NCBI GenBank assembly: GCA_001695645.1
Contig: LVZN01000031.1
Coordinates: 1-5,661, forward strand
Reading direction: 5' to 3'
Source: Erysipelotrichaceae bacterium MTC7
Lineage (GTDB): Bacteria > Bacillota_I > Bacilli_A > Erysipelotrichales > Erysipelotrichaceae
DNA: 5,661 nucleotides
Position numbers and translations under genes: made by a program. Positions 1-5,564 of the stretch are shown here, piece after piece (the first letter of the stretch is position 1; the number at the start of each line of letters is the position of its first letter). Below the pieces are notes generated by a model. The model worked only from the letters and a program-made list of their open reading frames with translations, did no database searches and had not been told where the DNA came from.

Positions 1-22
1 CTCATCTTTTTTGATTGTGTAG

Positions 23-72
23 CCACACGATATTTTATAGTTCAATATTTTCGAACCACACGTTATTTTATA
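23..72. repeat. Two direct copies of CCACACG(A/T)TATTTTATA (23-39 and 56-72), 33 bp apart
   Basis: The two 17-mers were read directly and match at 16 of 17 positions. The start-to-start spacing of 33 bp is about three helical turns. On the minus strand each copy reads TATAAAATA(A/T)CGTGTGG, which has a -10-like TATAAAAT core. The repeat lies downstream of the 81-aa gene in non-coding DNA at the window edge. Confidence 0.5.
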
Positions 73-134
73 TTACCTTTTTTAACATGGTTAGCACAAT
101 TTTACTCTGTATCTGCCCTCAATCTAATTAGTTG

Positions 135-380
135 TCAAACTCGTATCCAATCACCAATCCACTCACCATTAGTTTTGTTCATTTTTCTCTTATATTTAAC
201 TCCATTTACTGTTTTATAAACCCAAATATAAACAACAGATTTACCCTCCCCATTCGAGTTTGATGTAGTTGACCTACTCAAGGAAAATTGTGATATATCC
301 TCTTCTGATGCATTAATACTTGATGTAAAAAAACACAAACAAAGAATAAGAGACAATAATAGTTTTATTTTATTTTTCAT
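135..380 (-). CDS. Small secreted protein of unknown family (81 aa; predicted mature form 57 aa)
   Basis: The ATG at 378-380 is preceded by AGGAGG (385-390). That RBS starts 2 nt after the stop of the upstream M56 gene (393-395), which implies co-transcription. The N-terminus is a Sec-type signal peptide: MKNKIK / LLLSLILCLCFF / TSSINA|SEE. There is no lipobox. The mature C-terminal 35 aa is basic and aromatic (8 K/R vs 2 D/E) and ends in GEWIGDWIRV. I did not recognise a family. Confidence 0.7.
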   Translation of the reverse strand: MKNKIKLLLSLILCLCFFTSSINASEEDISQFSLSRSTTSNSNGEGKSVVYIWVYKTVNGVKYKRKMNKTNGEWIGDWIRV

Positions 381-392
381 TTTTCCTCCTGA

Positions 393-1514
393 TTATTCAC
401 TTTTGACTTCAAGGTGTTCATATTCAACTGTGATTTCTTCTATAGTTTCTAAGTACTCATTTTTATAATAAACATCAAAGCCTTTATCGGTTTCAATAAT
501 ATATGAGTTATCTTCTGTCAAAATAAAATATTCGTTTCCTTCAGGTATAGGGTAATCTGGTTGAAATGTAACTAAAGACACCATGACAATAAGGATTAAA
601 AGTAACGTGTATGATAAATTATTTAATTTAGTGCGTTTCGAATTTTCGTCAAATGATAGAATTGACCGACATCTAGTTGTAAACTCGGAGTTGCTTTCGT
701 TACCTGCAAATTCTGAAATCAGTGGGGTTTTATTCCAAATTATATTACTATTTATTCCATAAGTTTCAGCTTTTCTATACATTTTAAACAAGAATTCTGT
801 ATAAGTTACTGAATTGTTTTCTTTCATTTTCAGAACATGCAAATCAACATCTTTCTCTAACAATTCATACGTTTGCCTTCTAATTACAAACAGTAATGGA
901 TTCCACCAATACAAAGCATATATAAATTCGATAAGTAGTTTTATTAACATGTGAAAGTGCAAAAAATGTGTTAGTTCGTGTTGTAGTATCATAGATAACT
1001 CTGCTTCAGTGTAATCATCTTTTGGAATAATGATTGTACCTTTTACAAGTCCAATAACCATCGGAGCTGGAACAAAGTTTACATAAATTACCCTTATTTT
1101 TCTTCTTTTTGGCATAAAATCAACTAGAGATGGCATTATACTCTGTGGTATTTCACTGCTAGGAAATATTGAGAATACCCTATTTGTAACATATGTTTTT
1201 CTAATTAGCTTTATTAGCTTATATGCACTTATCGTAAACCAGAAAAAGATCATTAAATCTAGTATCATATAATCCATAAGAATCTTTGTTCTCAACATTT
1301 TACTTAACAAAACTAAAACATTGGTTGATAAGAAATGCCCGATTATTGGCAATTCTATCGGAATAGCAAGTCTCAACGAAATCACAACAAAAATTATCAG
1401 TAATGGTTTTATATCTATTTGCTGATTTGCATATCTATCTTTCAACTGTTTAAGAAAATATATACTTAAACTTGAAAAAAAGATAACACTTATTGTACCC
1501 CATGTTGTAAACAT
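393..1514 (-). CDS. BlaR1/MecR1-type M56 family membrane metalloprotease (signal transducer/anti-repressor) with a short non-PBP C-terminal ectodomain
   Basis: The zinc motif HELTH (residues 179-183) is encoded at 966-980. Its context is typical of Peptidase_M56: APMVIGLVKGTIIIP...ILQHELTHFLHFH...WWNPLLF...EKDVD. Hydrophobic segments sit at the N-terminus (about residues 5-20, 36-58 and 82-97). A further TM helix spans residues 299-317 (564-620). It is followed by a 56-aa tail (396-563). The start lies 4 nt downstream of the blaI-like stop. Confidence 0.9.
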   Translation of the reverse strand: MFTTWGTISVIFFSSLSIYFLKQLKDRYANQQIDIKPLLIIFVVISLRLAIPIELPIIGHFLSTNVLVLLSKMLRTKILMDYMILDLMIFFWFTISAYKLIKLIRKTYVTNRVFSIFPSSEIPQSIMPSLVDFMPKRRKIRVIYVNFVPAPMVIGLVKGTIIIPKDDYTEAELSMILQHELTHFLHFHMLIKLLIEFIYALYWWNPLLFVIRRQTYELLEKDVDLHVLKMKENNSVTYTEFLFKMYRKAETYGINSNIIWNKTPLISEFAGNESNSEFTTRCRSILSFDENSKRTKLNNLSYTLLLILIVMVSLVTFQPDYPIPEGNEYFILTEDNSYIIETDKGFDVYYKNEYLETIEEITVEYEHLEVKSE

Positions 1515-1518
1515 ATCA

Positions 1519-1920
1519 TTACCTAGTTTTTTCTTCTCTTCTTTCCTGAATCATCTTCTCAATCTCGTTGAGCATTTCTTCCTCTGATTGGTTTGATTCA
1601 GATTTCACCAGTGCAAGTGTCATTTCGTATATTGGATTATCTTTTTTACTCTTAGGAAATAAACTTTTGAATTGATCAACAGCATACTCATCCGCAGAAA
1701 CTAATGGAGAATACTTTCTTGCGTTGGTTTTATTTACAATTGTGATAGACGATATTTCTATATATTCCTTATTAAGCAATGTCTTTAAAGTATTTTGAAC
1801 AGTAAATATACTTATTTTTTCATCATCTATCCTTGATAATATTTCTGTTGCAGTTAAGCTATCATCTTCACTCCATAATACTTTCATAATATCTAATTCT
1901 CTTCCTGTTAATCTTTTCAT
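1519..1920 (-). CDS. BlaI/MecI/CopY-family winged-helix transcriptional repressor (Penicillinase_R-like)
   Basis: The translation MKRLTGRELDIMKVLWSEDDSLTATEILSRI...FTVQNTLKTLLNKEYIE...RKYSPLVSADEYAVDQFKSLF matches the BlaI/CopY pattern of an N-terminal wHTH followed by a YsPlvs..eY core. I prefer the ATG at 1918-1920 because AGGAG (1932-1936) lies 11 nt upstream. The ORF-track start at 1941 has no Shine-Dalgarno sequence and adds only 7 residues (MLGVEYI). Confidence 0.88.
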   Translation of the reverse strand: MKRLTGRELDIMKVLWSEDDSLTATEILSRIDDEKISIFTVQNTLKTLLNKEYIEISSITIVNKTNARKYSPLVSADEYAVDQFKSLFPKSKKDNPIYEMTLALVKSESNQSEEEMLNEIEKMIQERREEKTR

Positions 1921-1998
1921 AATATACTCTACTCCTAACATTCAAAATCGTATTCAATCATAAAAAACTCTTGAACTATAACTTACCTTTACAATTAT

Positions 1999-2027
1999 AT
2001 ACTACATAGATTGCTTTAATGTGTCAA
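1999..2027 (-). promoter_or_regulatory. Candidate sigma-A promoter for the blaI-like operon
   Basis: On the minus strand a perfect -35 TTGACA (complement of 2022-2027) is followed by a 17-nt spacer and a -10 TAGTAT (complement of 1999-2004). This is about 55-75 nt upstream of the repressor start codons. Confidence 0.5.
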
Positions 2028-2114: not shown

Positions 2115-2202
2115 GTAGCTACACAATAGTTGATGAATGAAATATTTAATATTTTTATGATTTACTTTAGTACAATAAGGAAAAGGAGAAGAAATAGGGG
2201 AA

Positions 2203-2337
2203 ATGAAAAAGAATGAATATTCAGACTTAAGGAAAAAGGGCGAAGAATATGGTAAAGATATTCGCTCATGGTATATTGGTTTTCTCGTGATATCTTTGAT
2301 TTTAGCAATTATCGTTATTGTATACTTGTTTATGTAG
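2203..2337 (+). CDS. Unannotated 44-aa tail-anchored membrane micro-protein (hypothetical)
   Basis: I translated this by hand: MKKNEYSDLRKKGEEYGKDIRSWYIGFLVISLILAIIVIVYLFM*. It has a charged N-terminal half followed by one clean TM helix of about 20 aa. A purine-rich stretch AAAAGGAGAAGAAATAGGGG (2181-2200) lies upstream. The stop is 20 nt before the next gene and downstream of the candidate promoter. It is below the size cutoff of the supplied ORF track. The Shine-Dalgarno spacing is suboptimal. Confidence 0.45.
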   Translation: MKKNEYSDLRKKGEEYGKDIRSWYIGFLVISLILAIIVIVYLFM

Positions 2338-2357: not shown

Positions 2358-2849
2358 ATGAAAATTTATAAAAAAATGCTTGTGGTACTGGTTGCTACAG
2401 TCATTGCTATGGTTGGTTTTACGAAATCAATAGATGCAGCTTCCATAGCTAGAACTGGAAAACTTGGTGGTACATTTAATACTACTTATCATTATGCGTA
2501 CAACTACAGTGCAATGATTTACTATGATGCAGGAACAGGTAGAGTTACATCCGCTGACACAATAAAAACAAGTAACAAAACTTGTGCTAGTCTCATTGGA
2601 CTAGAATATGGATGTTCGATCAACACTTCTCAAGCTTCTAAAACAATCAACTATGCTAGCGTTAAATATGTTGTTAAGGTTGATGTATATGCAAACACAG
2701 GTTGGGGCGGTGGAGTCTATGTTGGTTCACAAAATAACACAGTTACACTAAGCTCACCTGGACCAACTAGAGGTGCGGAACCGTTAGAAACGATTGAAAT
2801 TGGAGAAATGTACACTGATTTAAGATTGGTTGAAAACTTTGTAGAATAA
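2358..2849 (+). CDS. Orphan secreted protein (163 aa; predicted mature form 136 aa)
   Basis: The signal peptide is MKIYKK / MLVVLVATVIAMVGF / TKSIDA|AS. The mature part is rich in Thr, Ser, Asn, Tyr and Gly, which suggests a beta-rich fold. It has a single Cys pair (C-x9-C, CASLIGLEYGC), a GWGGGVYVG glycine patch, and an acidic tail EPLETIEIGEMYTDLRLVENFVE. A strong terminator follows. I did not recognise a family. Confidence 0.8.
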   Translation: MKIYKKMLVVLVATVIAMVGFTKSIDAASIARTGKLGGTFNTTYHYAYNYSAMIYYDAGTGRVTSADTIKTSNKTCASLIGLEYGCSINTSQASKTINYASVKYVVKVDVYANTGWGGGVYVGSQNNTVTLSSPGPTRGAEPLETIEIGEMYTDLRLVENFVE

Positions 2850-3285: not shown

Positions 3286-4446
3286 TTATTTATAAATCAA
3301 AATAATAGAGGTGGAAGAACTTCCACCTTTGATATTTACCTTGTTAGGGGTTCTGTTTTTTTTGCACTTGCATTTTTTATTTTGTGTGACTTTTGCTTTA
3401 TCAATTGTGTTACGAATAGAATCAATAGAACTACTTTCTGTTTTTTTTACAAGGAATTCATTCCAGTCCTTACTACCATCAAGAGGATATAATTCCTTTG
3501 CATTAACTCCTTTACTAGATAATATTTCAATTGCAATACCAGCAAACTTTTTTCCAGCGTTAATTTTATTTCCCCAGTCATTATCGTAGCACACCGTAAT
3601 ACTTTCATATCCAATACGTTCTTGCACCTTCAATATCGTTTCATACCGTGTACAGCTCCCAGTTGCAAGGTAAGCGTAATCGTTCAAATCTATTCCTTTT
3701 TCTTTTTGAAGAGTCATGTAAGACAGCATATCAACTGCTCCTTCAAAACAAAGTAATTCTTTTTTTGAAGAATATGGTTTTTCATTATATGCATTTTGTC
3801 TTGGATCTACTGACATATCTACTAGCCAACCATAATTGTAATCAGACCCTTGGATTTCTAATTTAAAATTGTTTGCATCCGTACAAGAACGTATATTTAC
3901 GCAAGCAACTAAGCCTAGTTCATCTCTTCCCACAAAAGCAACAGATTTTCTACCAAACCTGTCTTGTGCCTGCTTAATAAAGTCTTGTTTGACCAATGTA
4001 ATAACGATAGTTGGATCTATTTTTCTTTTCTGAATTAAGTATGCCATTACGTTTTTACTAGATTCATCAAACGTAACATTACCAAGCAATGTTTGTGTTC
4101 GCTTTTTTTTGTAGGCTAAAGAATTAGTATCTTCTAACGTTTTCCTTGGTTTTTTTTCTATTACATCAACATCTACATTTATCCTTGGCAAACAATACTC
4201 ATAAGCTTCTTTAAAGTTCATATCAATCTCAGGGATCTCTTCCATAAATTTTAGTACGTCTCCGCCTTTATGTGTAGCCCATCTTACAAACGAGTTAGTA
4301 TCTTTATATATAGTTACTGAATCATGTTCTTCTAGTTTAGCTAGTCTTTTTGATTTATGGACAACTCTCAATCCAAATTCCTCCGCAATATCCACAATTT
4401 GTATTTGATCCTTTATTTTGTTTTTTAATTCTCTATCTATTTTCAT
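3286..4446 (-). CDS. DUF3991/Toprim domain protein (conjugative-element primase-like)
   Basis: The Toprim motifs are the Glu in LLCFEGAVDMLSY (E235, 3742-3744) and the DxD in TVCYDNDWGN (residues 288-290, 3577-3585). The central region resembles DUF3991: AYLIQKRKIDP...VAFVGRDELG...FKLEIQGSDYNYGW. The N-terminus resembles a CHC2 primase zinc-finger fold but lacks the Cys ligands. The start lies 3 nt after the stop of the upstream gene. Confidence 0.85.
   Translation of the reverse strand: MKIDRELKNKIKDQIQIVDIAEEFGLRVVHKSKRLAKLEEHDSVTIYKDTNSFVRWATHKGGDVLKFMEEIPEIDMNFKEAYEYCLPRINVDVDVIEKKPRKTLEDTNSLAYKKKRTQTLLGNVTFDESSKNVMAYLIQKRKIDPTIVITLVKQDFIKQAQDRFGRKSVAFVGRDELGLVACVNIRSCTDANNFKLEIQGSDYNYGWLVDMSVDPRQNAYNEKPYSSKKELLCFEGAVDMLSYMTLQKEKGIDLNDYAYLATGSCTRYETILKVQERIGYESITVCYDNDWGNKINAGKKFAGIAIEILSSKGVNAKELYPLDGSKDWNEFLVKKTESSSIDSIRNTIDKAKVTQNKKCKCKKNRTPNKVNIKGGSSSTSIILIYK
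3296..3328 (-). terminator. Terminator-like hairpin inside the last codons of the Toprim gene
   Basis: A perfect inverted repeat pairs AGGTGGAAG (3309-3317) with CTTCCACCT (3320-3328). On the minus strand it is followed by CTATTATTTTGATTTAT. It encodes the odd C-terminal GGSSSTS tail and sits just upstream of the RBS of the 78-aa gene. Confidence 0.4.
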
Positions 4447-4449
4447 TTG

Positions 4450-4680
4450 TTATTCCTTCTTTCCATGATTAGAATGAAATACTAGAACTGAATTTTCTTC
4501 TATTAAAGTTAGTAATCCACTTTCGTCTTCGCTTGATAATTTTATTAAGAGGGAATCAGTAAATGATTTTTGTATAGGAAAGTTTGTTCTGCTATTAACC
4601 AATAGCAGTCTCAACTCTTCAATTGAAGTTGGTTTATAAAATTGAATAAAATACTTTTCCTCTTGTGTATAAATTTTCAT
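4450..4680 (-). CDS. Small protein resembling the 'transposon-transfer assisting' (TnpW-like) family
   Basis: The 76-aa product reads MKIYTQEEKYFIQFYKPTSIEELRLLLVNS...FTDSLLIKLSSEDESG. This resembles the family pattern as I recall it (fT.EE..li.iy...sr.eli..L......e...l.ds.l.KL..m.dee). Its start overlaps the upstream stop in an ATGA overlap (4677-4680). Its position next to a DUF3991/Toprim gene is typical of Firmicutes conjugative elements. Confidence 0.55.
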   Translation of the reverse strand: MKIYTQEEKYFIQFYKPTSIEELRLLLVNSRTNFPIQKSFTDSLLIKLSSEDESGLLTLIEENSVLVFHSNHGKKE

Positions 4681-5564
4681 ACTGTGTCCTCCCCTAAATA
4701 AACATCATTATCATCAAACATGAAATCCATTGGAACTCCATTACTATCTTCATTTTTCGCTTCAACATCAAGGACATGATCACTGTCCTGGTAATTTTGC
4801 AATCTATTATTTCTTATCTCTTTGGCAGCATCAATGGTTTCTCTTACATTCCTTGATTTGATTACTTCAATTTCTTCAAGTTGTTTTTTTCGCCTTTCTT
4901 TTTCATCAAACGATACACAAGAATTAACCACTACTGAAGGTAACATCTGAAAGAGTTCTGACAAATATATGTAGAGTTGAACACACTCCTCTTCACTATG
5001 ATTCTCAAAATCTAGGAACTCGTCCACATCAGTTTTTAGAATATCTAGAAGCCCAAATTGTAAGTAATTCATCAAGTTATCCTTAAAAGATAATTGTTTA
5101 CCTTTTTCATATTCATATTGTTTAAATAGTTCAGAAATCAACTTCTCATGCCAATCTTCAGAGAAAATCGATTTTAGCTTTTGAATACGTTTTGGATCTA
5201 AATATGTTGCAATTAATGACGAAAAAACTGGCTTCTTCTTAGTATTCATTTGTGAAATATCGAATACTTTTACTGGTTTCCAAATTATTGTATTTCCCGT
5301 GCAACTGGGAACTACTGTAAGTAAACCTTTCATCCCCTTCTTAACCCATAATTCCTCTTTAAATTCTTTATCCCATGCATCTTTCGTTTTTACATTTGTT
5401 GCAGATGGCAAGTTATAAAGAATACTCGCAACATTCCACCAACTGATATCAGAAAACATTCTCATGAAACGTATATGAGTTTTTAATACCTCTTTATTTC
5501 TAACGAAGTTAGGAATCTGTCTTTTAACTTCATCTATGTATCCTATAAGTTGTTCTTCATTCAT
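4677..5564 (-). CDS. ArdC-N-like ssDNA-binding domain protein with an acidic C-terminal tail (conjugative-element protein)
   Basis: A strong RBS AGGAGGTG lies 6 nt upstream of the ATG. Residues 37-86 (5307-5456) read FSDISWWNVASILYNLPSATNVKTKDAWDKEFKEELWVKKGMKGLLTVVP. This fits the ArdC N-domain pattern YS..N..LI..Q.P.AT.V.t...W...g..VkKGekGi.i..P. No HExxH protease motif is present. Confidence 0.5.
   Translation of the reverse strand: MNEEQLIGYIDEVKRQIPNFVRNKEVLKTHIRFMRMFSDISWWNVASILYNLPSATNVKTKDAWDKEFKEELWVKKGMKGLLTVVPSCTGNTIIWKPVKVFDISQMNTKKKPVFSSLIATYLDPKRIQKLKSIFSEDWHEKLISELFKQYEYEKGKQLSFKDNLMNYLQFGLLDILKTDVDEFLDFENHSEEECVQLYIYLSELFQMLPSVVVNSCVSFDEKERRKKQLEEIEVIKSRNVRETIDAAKEIRNNRLQNYQDSDHVLDVEAKNEDSNGVPMDFMFDDNDVYLGEDTV

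Follow-up and report, generated by a model that had tools for sequence, protein, structure and literature searches.

A small, predicted secreted protein conserved as a third component beside a BlaI/M56 protease pair in gut Bacillota

Gene organization of the locus

The window, by which we mean the whole analysed stretch of 5661 nt from Erysipelotrichaceae bacterium MTC7 (GC content 30.8%), carries on its minus strand three consecutive genes: a gene of a BlaI-type repressor, a gene of an M56 (BlaR1-like) membrane zinc protease and ORF 135–380, whose product has 81 aa (Table 1). Read on the minus strand, the junction between the last two genes consists of the M56 stop codon TAA (393–395), the dinucleotide TC, the AGGAGG sequence, AAAA and the ATG codon at position 380. 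A gap of 12 nt with the ribosome-binding site inside leaves no space there for a separate promoter of the small gene. The stop codon of blaI lies 4 nt ahead of the M56 start, so blaI and the M56 gene are coupled as well, which makes the small gene the third cistron. An earlier sequence-only reading had described AGGAGG 2 nt after the M56 stop codon and the third-cistron position; both were borne out by the window sequence, the strand (minus) being a detail which that reading did not give. This layout shows the small gene to be, in all probability, co-transcribed and translationally coupled with the gene of the BlaR1-fold membrane zinc protease.

As for the upstream end of the operon, the true start of blaI is likely to be the ATG codon at 1920, with AGGAG in front of it. 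A search for a common palindromic BlaI operator upstream of 60 blaI genes returned AT-rich noise only, and a three-way footprint of the window and loci L001 and L003 was not informative.

Table 1. Features of the blaI–M56–small-gene cassette in the window
Feature	Position	Strand	Evidence or remark
Small-protein gene, third cistron	135..380	-	ORF list; 8.5e-24 against family profile; 286 homologous clusters
C-terminal module, aa 51-81, YIWVYKTVNGVKYKRKMNKTNGEWIGDWIRV, predicted three-stranded antiparallel beta-sheet	138..230	-	AlphaFold2 (AF2) model and conservation
Polar acidic linker, predicted disordered, aa 25-50	231..308	-	pLDDT 53-63; least conserved part of the cassette
Signal peptide, aa 1-24, MKNKIKLLLSLILCLCFFTSSINA	309..380	-	n-, h- and c-region by sequence reading; AF2 helix 3-18
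Shine-Dalgarno AGGAGG	385..390	-	2 nt past M56 stop codon, 4 nt ahead of small-gene ATG (sequence)
M56 (BlaR1-like) membrane zinc protease, 373 aa, without penicillin-binding domain	393..1514	-	Pfam PF05569, 1.5e-21
M56 C-terminal acidic beta-hairpin ectodomain, aa 318-373	396..563	-	Composition, AF2 strands, family consensus
HELTH zinc-binding motif, aa 179-183	966..980	-	H179, E180 and H183 invariant
R48-x3-P52-x-E54 loop between predicted helices 2 and 3	1353..1373	-	Conservation in orthologues
BlaI-type winged-helix repressor gene	1519..1941	-	Pfam PF03965 (Penicillinase_R), 6.4e-12, aligned from residue 11
Best sigma-70-like promoter match before blaI: TTGACA, 17 nt, TAGTAT	1999..2027	-	10/12 consensus matches; shuffled DNA of the region has no fewer such sites

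The M56 protease and its ectodomain

Modelling shows the M56 protein with what is predicted to be the BlaR1 protease fold, in which an acidic beta-hairpin ectodomain of ~56 aa replaces the penicillin-binding sensor. The AF2 model, which is of moderate quality (mean pLDDT 66, from 7 sequences only), matched in Foldseek the cryo-EM structures of Staphylococcus aureus BlaR1 (8EXS, 8EXQ, 8EXP and 8EXR) with probability 1.00. The transpeptidase sensor domain PF00905 was not found in the protein, the 56 aa past the last TM helix gave no Pfam match, and the score against the NCBIfam model blaR1_generic was 57 versus a cut-off of 400. In the tail AF2 placed strands at residues 330–332, 337–342, 345–350 and 353–358 (pLDDT 64–73), forming a small beta-meander; its family consensus is N-x-Y-x-I-x3-D-G-x-Y-D-x-Y. 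Recounting of these 56 aa confirmed the charge reported earlier for the ectodomain (16 D/E and 3 K, with 0 R).

Outside the zinc-binding motif, conservation points to the R-x3-P-x-E loop: R48 and P52 are present in 98% of 59 orthologues and a Glu at position 54 in the majority of them (50–80%), while in the alignment of 7 M56 sequences all three residues are invariant. By likeness to BlaR1 this loop is probably extracellular. E318 is conserved at the membrane boundary and is, like the loop and the hairpin motifs, presumed to be outside the membrane.

The cassette has in common with BlaR1–BlaI and MecR1–MecI of staphylococci the M56 transmembrane and zinc-protease fold, the HExxH motif and a BlaI-type repressor in the same operon, but here there is no penicillin-binding domain, and a linked beta-lactamase or PBP2a gene is absent from the window, with no such conserved neighbour in the 87 loci described below. 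In BlaR1, signalling reportedly depends, according to cryo-EM work, on an extracellular loop contacting the sensor domain.

The small-protein family

A word-indexed search with the small protein gave one relative (P0001, 39% identity), encoded directly after a BlaI–M56 pair and overlapping the M56 stop codon. A two-sequence profile was then searched against 1.84 billion cluster representatives, and we observed 286 proteins (representative clusters) at E-value ≤1e-3. Nearly all of them have 70–95 aa and one common architecture: a signal peptide with an A-x-A-like site, a variable polar linker and a C-terminal module with the consensus W-[RV]-Y-K-x2-N-G-x2-Y-K-R-L-Y-N-x-[TS]-x3-W-[IV]-G-D-W-I. 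The named members, e.g. those of Oscillibacter valericigenes and Lacrimispora algidixylanolytica, are all called ‘hypothetical protein’ in the source databases. Three large proteins (P0018, P0034 and P0068) considered as possible fusions were rejected, being low-complexity matches to the linker.

At the DNA level, a degenerate pattern for the small-protein motif only was scanned against one genome per species (185 579 species), with a chance expectation of ~0.02 matches by our own estimate. The scan gave 87 stretches, every one with an ORF of the family; they come mostly from Lachnospiraceae, the others from Erysipelotrichaceae, Oscillospiraceae, Enterococcus, Companilactobacillus and Sedimentibacter. 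Carriers that can be cultured include Companilactobacillus nantensis DSM 16982, Thomasclavelia spiroformis and Holdemanella hominis. The motif pattern was absent (0 matches) from 2.9 million viral contigs, and we therefore no longer considered a function carried by phages. Plasmid and phage collections contained nothing close to the window, its M56 protein or the small protein.

With 286 homologous clusters, a conserved protein motif, conserved synteny (see below) and a strong ribosome-binding site with coupling, ORF 135–380 is, as judged from these comparisons, a real gene, far beyond chance. The idea of a non-functional, chance or untranslated ORF, in favour of which one could name only the small size and a frameshift in one relative (L003), is effectively refuted by conservation and retains practically no probability.

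The signal peptide of the window protein has three Lys residues, a hydrophobic core of 12 residues and Ala at position −1, the latter retained in at least 90% of members of the family alignment. The linker segment SEEDISQFSLSRSTTSNSNGEG counts 22 aa with 4 D/E versus 1 K/R, and the C-terminal 35 aa contain 8 K/R, 2 D/E and 6 aromatic residues; taken as a whole, the mature protein has a net charge of only +3. Thus recounted, the 24-aa signal peptide, the 57-aa mature product, the acidic linker and the basic aromatic C-terminal 35 aa described in the sequence-only reading all hold.

The last 30 residues contain most of the conserved positions, including most of the aromatic and Lys/Arg residues; W53, K56, Y63, R65, W74 and W78 are invariant or nearly so in the family, with a spacing of 21 residues from W53 to W74. 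With 112 family sequences as input, AF2 predicted the three strands of the module at residues 51–58, 61–68 and 73–80 with pLDDT ~95. Strand alternation would put conserved residues on both faces of the predicted sheet, suggesting that the module packs against something.

A Foldseek search of the PDB with this model gave no significant match (best E-value 2.5), as expected for so small a unit, and the sole match of a sequence profile in the PDB was to the signal peptide. The small protein had no match in Pfam, NCBIfam, PHROGs or PADLOC, nor did 30 family members in Pfam. Small beta domains of the wall-binding or WW-like kind (CW_binding_1, SH3b, WW) were excluded as matches, with neither profile nor structure fitting: WW domains and CW_binding_1 repeats share with the module hairpin or three-stranded units of ~20–35 residues rich in Trp and Tyr, a likeness of fold class only, but sequence matches in Pfam or PDB and a significant Foldseek match are missing. 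A YD/RHS repeat identity was also set aside, as the window protein gives no profile match.

Where the linker passes into the module, ~8–10 residues ahead of the first conserved Trp, most family members have the motif I-x-P-x-[AS]-D-x-[IV]-x-W, possibly a processing site or an additional strand. The motif is missing from the window protein, which has EGKSVVYIW instead, and in the closest relatives only IMSD is left.

Linkage of the small gene and the M56 gene

In the 87 loci BlaI and M56 proteins were detected with profiles built from Pfam-annotated seeds, full-length M56 proteins scoring from 1e-85 to 1e-143. We considered the 71 small genes that had 700 nt or more of DNA on their upstream side. 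Co-occurrence with M56, which the sequence-only reading had itself named as a check, is very strongly supported: in 70 of the 71 cases an M56 gene ends just upstream on the same strand, and the one remaining copy (L068) belongs to a rearranged trio with the order small gene, blaI, M56, where M56 is one gene away. The trio is kept as well in L090, in the order M56, small gene, blaI. Among 68 junctions between M56 and small gene there were 48 overlaps and 12 further cases with a distance of ≤20 nt, i.e. 60 of 68; overlaps and short gaps of this kind are typical of genes whose products are subunits produced in constant proportion.

BlaI was found in 61 of the 68 complete family loci. When neighbouring ORFs of the 87 loci were clustered, BlaI, M56 and the small protein were the sole conserved genes; the flanks were variable and included genes of ABC-F ATPases, sugar-nucleotide and glycosyltransferase genes, chemoreceptors and housekeeping genes. 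A reverse search that started from M56 showed the small gene downstream in five of six relatives (P0003–P0008, about three lineages). For P0006 (locus L097) no gene of the small family was present on the 4.2-kb contig, which has 213 nt of DNA downstream of M56.

In another locus, L003, the small gene has a 1-nt frameshift while blaI and M56 are intact, and the sequence in L004 is identical. This could be either a recent pseudogene or an assembly error common to the two assemblies.

Charge, conservation and co-evolution

The opposite charges of the two extracellular parts, described in the sequence-only reading for the window, were seen across the family: 98% of loci have a negatively charged M56 ectodomain (median −9) and 85% a positively charged module (median +2). 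Complementarity of the charge sign therefore holds as a family trait. The charge magnitudes of module and ectodomain are uncorrelated (Spearman −0.15, p 0.25).

Mean pairwise distances were determined in 59 complete trios. The module has the lowest value (0.45), followed by BlaI (0.68), the M56 core (0.74), the M56 ectodomain (0.75) and the signal peptide with linker (0.78); thus no other part of the cassette is nearly as constrained as the 30-residue module. In terms of mean identity, it reaches 55% versus 25% for the ectodomain. A mirror-tree comparison of module and ectodomain gave a raw correlation of 0.28 and a partial correlation, given the M56 core, of −0.02; the power of this comparison is low because there are 59 pairs only and the module is nearly invariant. 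The co-evolution with the M56 tail that the sequence-only reading had called for was accordingly not seen: neither the partial correlation nor the charge magnitudes gave a specific interface signal. Its proposal of a cognate ligand, co-sensor or inhibitor of M56 is thus supported in part, by co-occurrence and the family-wide sign of charge, and finds no backing in co-evolution. The possibility that ectodomain and module are homologous halves of a pseudo-symmetric pair was rejected (hhalign probability 0.15%).

Comparison with known systems

We know of no secreted third component in the canonical bla and mec regulons, in agreement with the sequence-only reading. MecR2, whose gene follows that of the repressor, is an anti-repressor of the cytoplasm; the third component of the present cassette, in contrast, has 81 aa, begins with a signal peptide and comes from a gene that follows M56. 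CpxP, a small extracytoplasmic protein, modulates (inhibits) the sensor CpxA and is at the same time an output of it. The window resembles that system in having a small exported protein genetically linked to, and probably co-regulated with, a sensor that it possibly modulates; the analogy is functional only, since the sensor is a histidine kinase rather than an M56 protease, the protein helical rather than a beta-sheet and the envelope Gram-negative.

The published case closest to the window cassette is CenIR of Clostridioides difficile, a BlaIR-type pair without transpeptidase domain and with a short C-terminal tail of the M56 protein (Kurtz, Muh, Weiss and Ellermeier, J Bacteriol 2026, PMC13492132). 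As in the window, a small signal-peptide protein is encoded directly downstream of the pair: CDR_0474, the dominant member of the CenIR regulon, is an exported protein of 136 aa with a gene located 215 bp downstream (PMC13492132). It differs from the window protein in length, in this distance and in being induced alone, whereas the window gene, with a product of 81 aa, is translationally coupled. CDR_0474 is also restricted to C. difficile, BLAST finding no relatives elsewhere (PMC13492132), while the family described here has 286 clusters across Bacillota; we set the two apart by the published description, not by sequence. According to the same paper, ~6% of roughly 15 000 M56 proteins have a beta-lactam-binding domain, the commonest architecture is an M56 domain with a short unassigned tail, the second commonest has a TonB_C protein–protein interaction ectodomain, and the activating signals of ~94% of BlaR-like proteins, CenIR included, are reported as unknown (PMC13492132). 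The preprint on PvmSR of Pseudomonas aeruginosa mentions no third component.

Possible role of the small protein

From the comparisons of sequences we regard it as settled that the product of ORF 135–380 is a conserved, by all signs secreted, third component of a distinct BlaI/M56 subfamily. As for its role, we tentatively prefer a reading in which the small protein would work outside the cell as a partner of the M56 protease, either a co-sensor in trans or a feedback modulator. In such a mechanism a protein of ~57 aa, encoded in a self-contained blaI–M56–small-gene cassette widespread in gut Bacillota, would be exported by Sec, and after export its module would stay at the cell surface. The module would bind the M56 ectodomain, the R-x3-P-x-E loop or both, and would either supply in trans a sensing surface missing from M56 or work as a feedback modulator. 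The protease would be switched when this contact changes, be it through a conserved envelope or environmental ligand bound on the aromatic face or through loss of the small protein; it would then cleave the BlaI-type repressor, with derepression of the operon and of other BlaI targets.

A partner is favoured by the obligate linkage, the tight coupling, the survival of the trio through rearrangements of gene order and the opposite signs of charge, as well as by the fact that neither small beta unit looks self-sufficient, both extracellular pieces being predicted small beta-meanders. The TonB_C interaction ectodomain of the second commonest M56 architecture we count as a precedent. What speaks against a partner is the lack of a co-evolution signal, the frameshifted small gene in L003/L004, the M56 gene of L097 without a small gene and the need of an anchorless secreted protein for some means of retention, none being known. 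Moreover, the module is far more conserved than the ectodomain, which agrees better with a conserved target elsewhere than with an interface private to the cassette. That latter point also bears on the main rival reading, an equally simple one, namely that the small protein is a regulated output: it would act on the envelope or bind the cell wall at a level controlled by BlaI/M56, and would not signal back. This we judge to be less likely than a partner. It would be consistent with the module being the most conserved element, with its richness in Trp, Tyr, Lys and Arg, suited to binding an invariant envelope polymer, with the lack of co-evolution with the ectodomain and with the absence of further conserved neighbours, which leaves the small protein as sole candidate for an effector in cis. 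CenIR gives a precedent, CDR_0474 being induced ~500-fold on loss of the regulator and causing envelope phenotypes (PMC13492132). Still, cdr_0474 lies 215 bp downstream and is strongly induced alone (PMC13492132), but the small gene here, translationally coupled to that of the sensor, would lack a separate promoter. The module shows no likeness to any wall-binding domain in Pfam or PDB. The known outputs of BlaI-type repressors, blaZ and mecA, are, as is generally known, separate transcription units. An output and a partner with feedback are compatible, not mutually exclusive.

A secreted ligand, a receptor and a transcription factor in one presumably autoregulated operon are also reminiscent of pheromone cassettes such as agr, com and pln (general knowledge). 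The small protein, which has no anchor and in most members carries I-x-P-x-[AS]-D before the module as a possible processing site, could then be a diffusible autoinducer that binds the M56 ectodomain, triggers cleavage of BlaI and induces its own operon in a quorum-sensing loop by regulated proteolysis. We consider this improbable. Pheromone cassettes show rapid co-diversification of ligand and receptor, whereas here the ligand is less divergent than the receptor ectodomain (0.45 versus 0.75), the ectodomain has diverged no faster than the M56 core (0.74) and the partial correlation is −0.02. A ligand more conserved than its receptor runs counter to the diversification of pherotypes and would entail extensive cross-talk among species; nor is a dedicated processing or export gene conserved in the loci. 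A role of the small protein as a cationic bacteriocin or antimicrobial peptide exported by Sec, for which BlaI/M56 would provide regulation or immunity, is highly improbable: the small mature product, the cationic Trp/Tyr-rich module and Sec export would recall lactococcin 972 and enterocin P (general knowledge), but immunity or ABC transporter genes are not conserved nearby, bacteriocin families give no match, the very high conservation across Bacillota families is atypical and the net charge of the whole mature window protein is low, as given above.

Returning to the partner reading, one could speculate that this M56 subfamily is a split BlaR1, its sensing or ligand subunit being detachable and, as a diffusible and conserved protein, doubling as an interspecies signal among gut Lachnospiraceae; we think this rather doubtful. 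If it were true, it would amount to cell–cell communication via regulated proteolysis of a BlaI repressor, a mode so far undescribed.

BlaI/BlaR-type systems of regulated proteolysis are abundant, and beyond the ~6% that sense beta-lactams the signal is acknowledged as an open question (PMC13492132). A large unannotated secreted family beside an M56 protein that lacks the sensor domain gives a concrete lead to what these widespread sensors of gut bacteria detect. The loci delimit a large subfamily from Bacillota of the human and animal gut, whose sensor goes with a strictly linked 30-residue module that is secreted and has a predicted structure. A protein of 35–57 aa can be synthesised, so it would be a cheap reagent to probe sensor signals, as well as how a BlaR1-fold protease switches without a penicillin-binding domain. 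A family now annotated as ‘hypothetical protein’ could receive a family model.

Further observations on individual loci

In L003, the region 8193–8437 has the signal peptide and linker at 8193–8366 and the module IYKTVNKVTYKRRFNQTTGKWVGDWIRI in another frame at 8351–8437. This small-gene remnant adjoins the closest relative of the window M56 protein (59% identity). The M56 ectodomain in L097 has a hairpin of the same type as the family (NSYII...YELY). Locus L045 has two copies of the small gene (2005–2232 and 5039–5266) 3 kb apart on a 5.6-kb contig, each preceded by a 92-aa M56 fragment only; the pair may stem from a tandem duplication followed by decay, or from faulty assembly.

A variant module, QYRHWN[AE]TQG[RK]WVEPDWI, was observed in L005 (5483–5719), L093 (3037–3273), L095 (1778–2011) and L098 (3344–3580). 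The M56 protein of these loci has 380 aa and a different, apparently helical end of the ectodomain, and the loci lie among sortase, SpoVG and DUF6674 genes. The L005 variant has a sub-threshold match to the RHS-associated core model TIGR03696 (E-value 0.0086, 16.6 bits versus a cut-off of 32.5).

By sequence reading, the cassette is situated beside genes of a PseB-like dehydratase and a DegT-like aminotransferase in one clade, with L009, L013, L026, L043, L068 and neighbouring Acetatifactor/Lachnospiraceae loci, and with large multi-pass membrane proteins also nearby in L013, L026 and L043; in a separate group, L029, L054, L070 and L076, an N-acetylneuraminate-synthase-like gene is found upstream of it. 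Sugar-nucleotide and neuraminate neighbours hint that the cassette of those species may have to do with surface glycan or flagellin glycosylation.

Surroundings of the cassette in the window

Just downstream of the small gene there are two tandem 33-nt repeats (window 14–79, plus strand) with CCACACG[AT]TATTT at 23–35 and 56–68; a third similar copy, CTACACAATAGTT, is present at 2119–2131 (plus strand) in the intergenic region upstream of blaI. The three matches compare with 0.14 expected for a pattern chosen post hoc. In L003, ACACGATATTTT is found shortly past the small-gene remnant. The repeat may be an operator for BlaI or for another regulator.

Divergently from blaI, the window encodes a 44-aa ORF with a single TM segment (2203–2337, plus strand) and a 163-aa signal-peptide protein (2358–2849, plus strand), with no Pfam or NCBIfam match and not conserved beside other cassettes. 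In bla loci blaZ has the same divergent position relative to blaI. These two genes are candidates for local targets of the repressor.

Three more ORFs on the minus strand (3286–4446, 4450–4680 and 4677–5564) correspond to a primase-like protein (Toprim_2, DUF3991 and a weak CHC2 zinc finger) and two unannotated ORFs, suggesting that the window cassette is located on a conjugative or mobilisable element.
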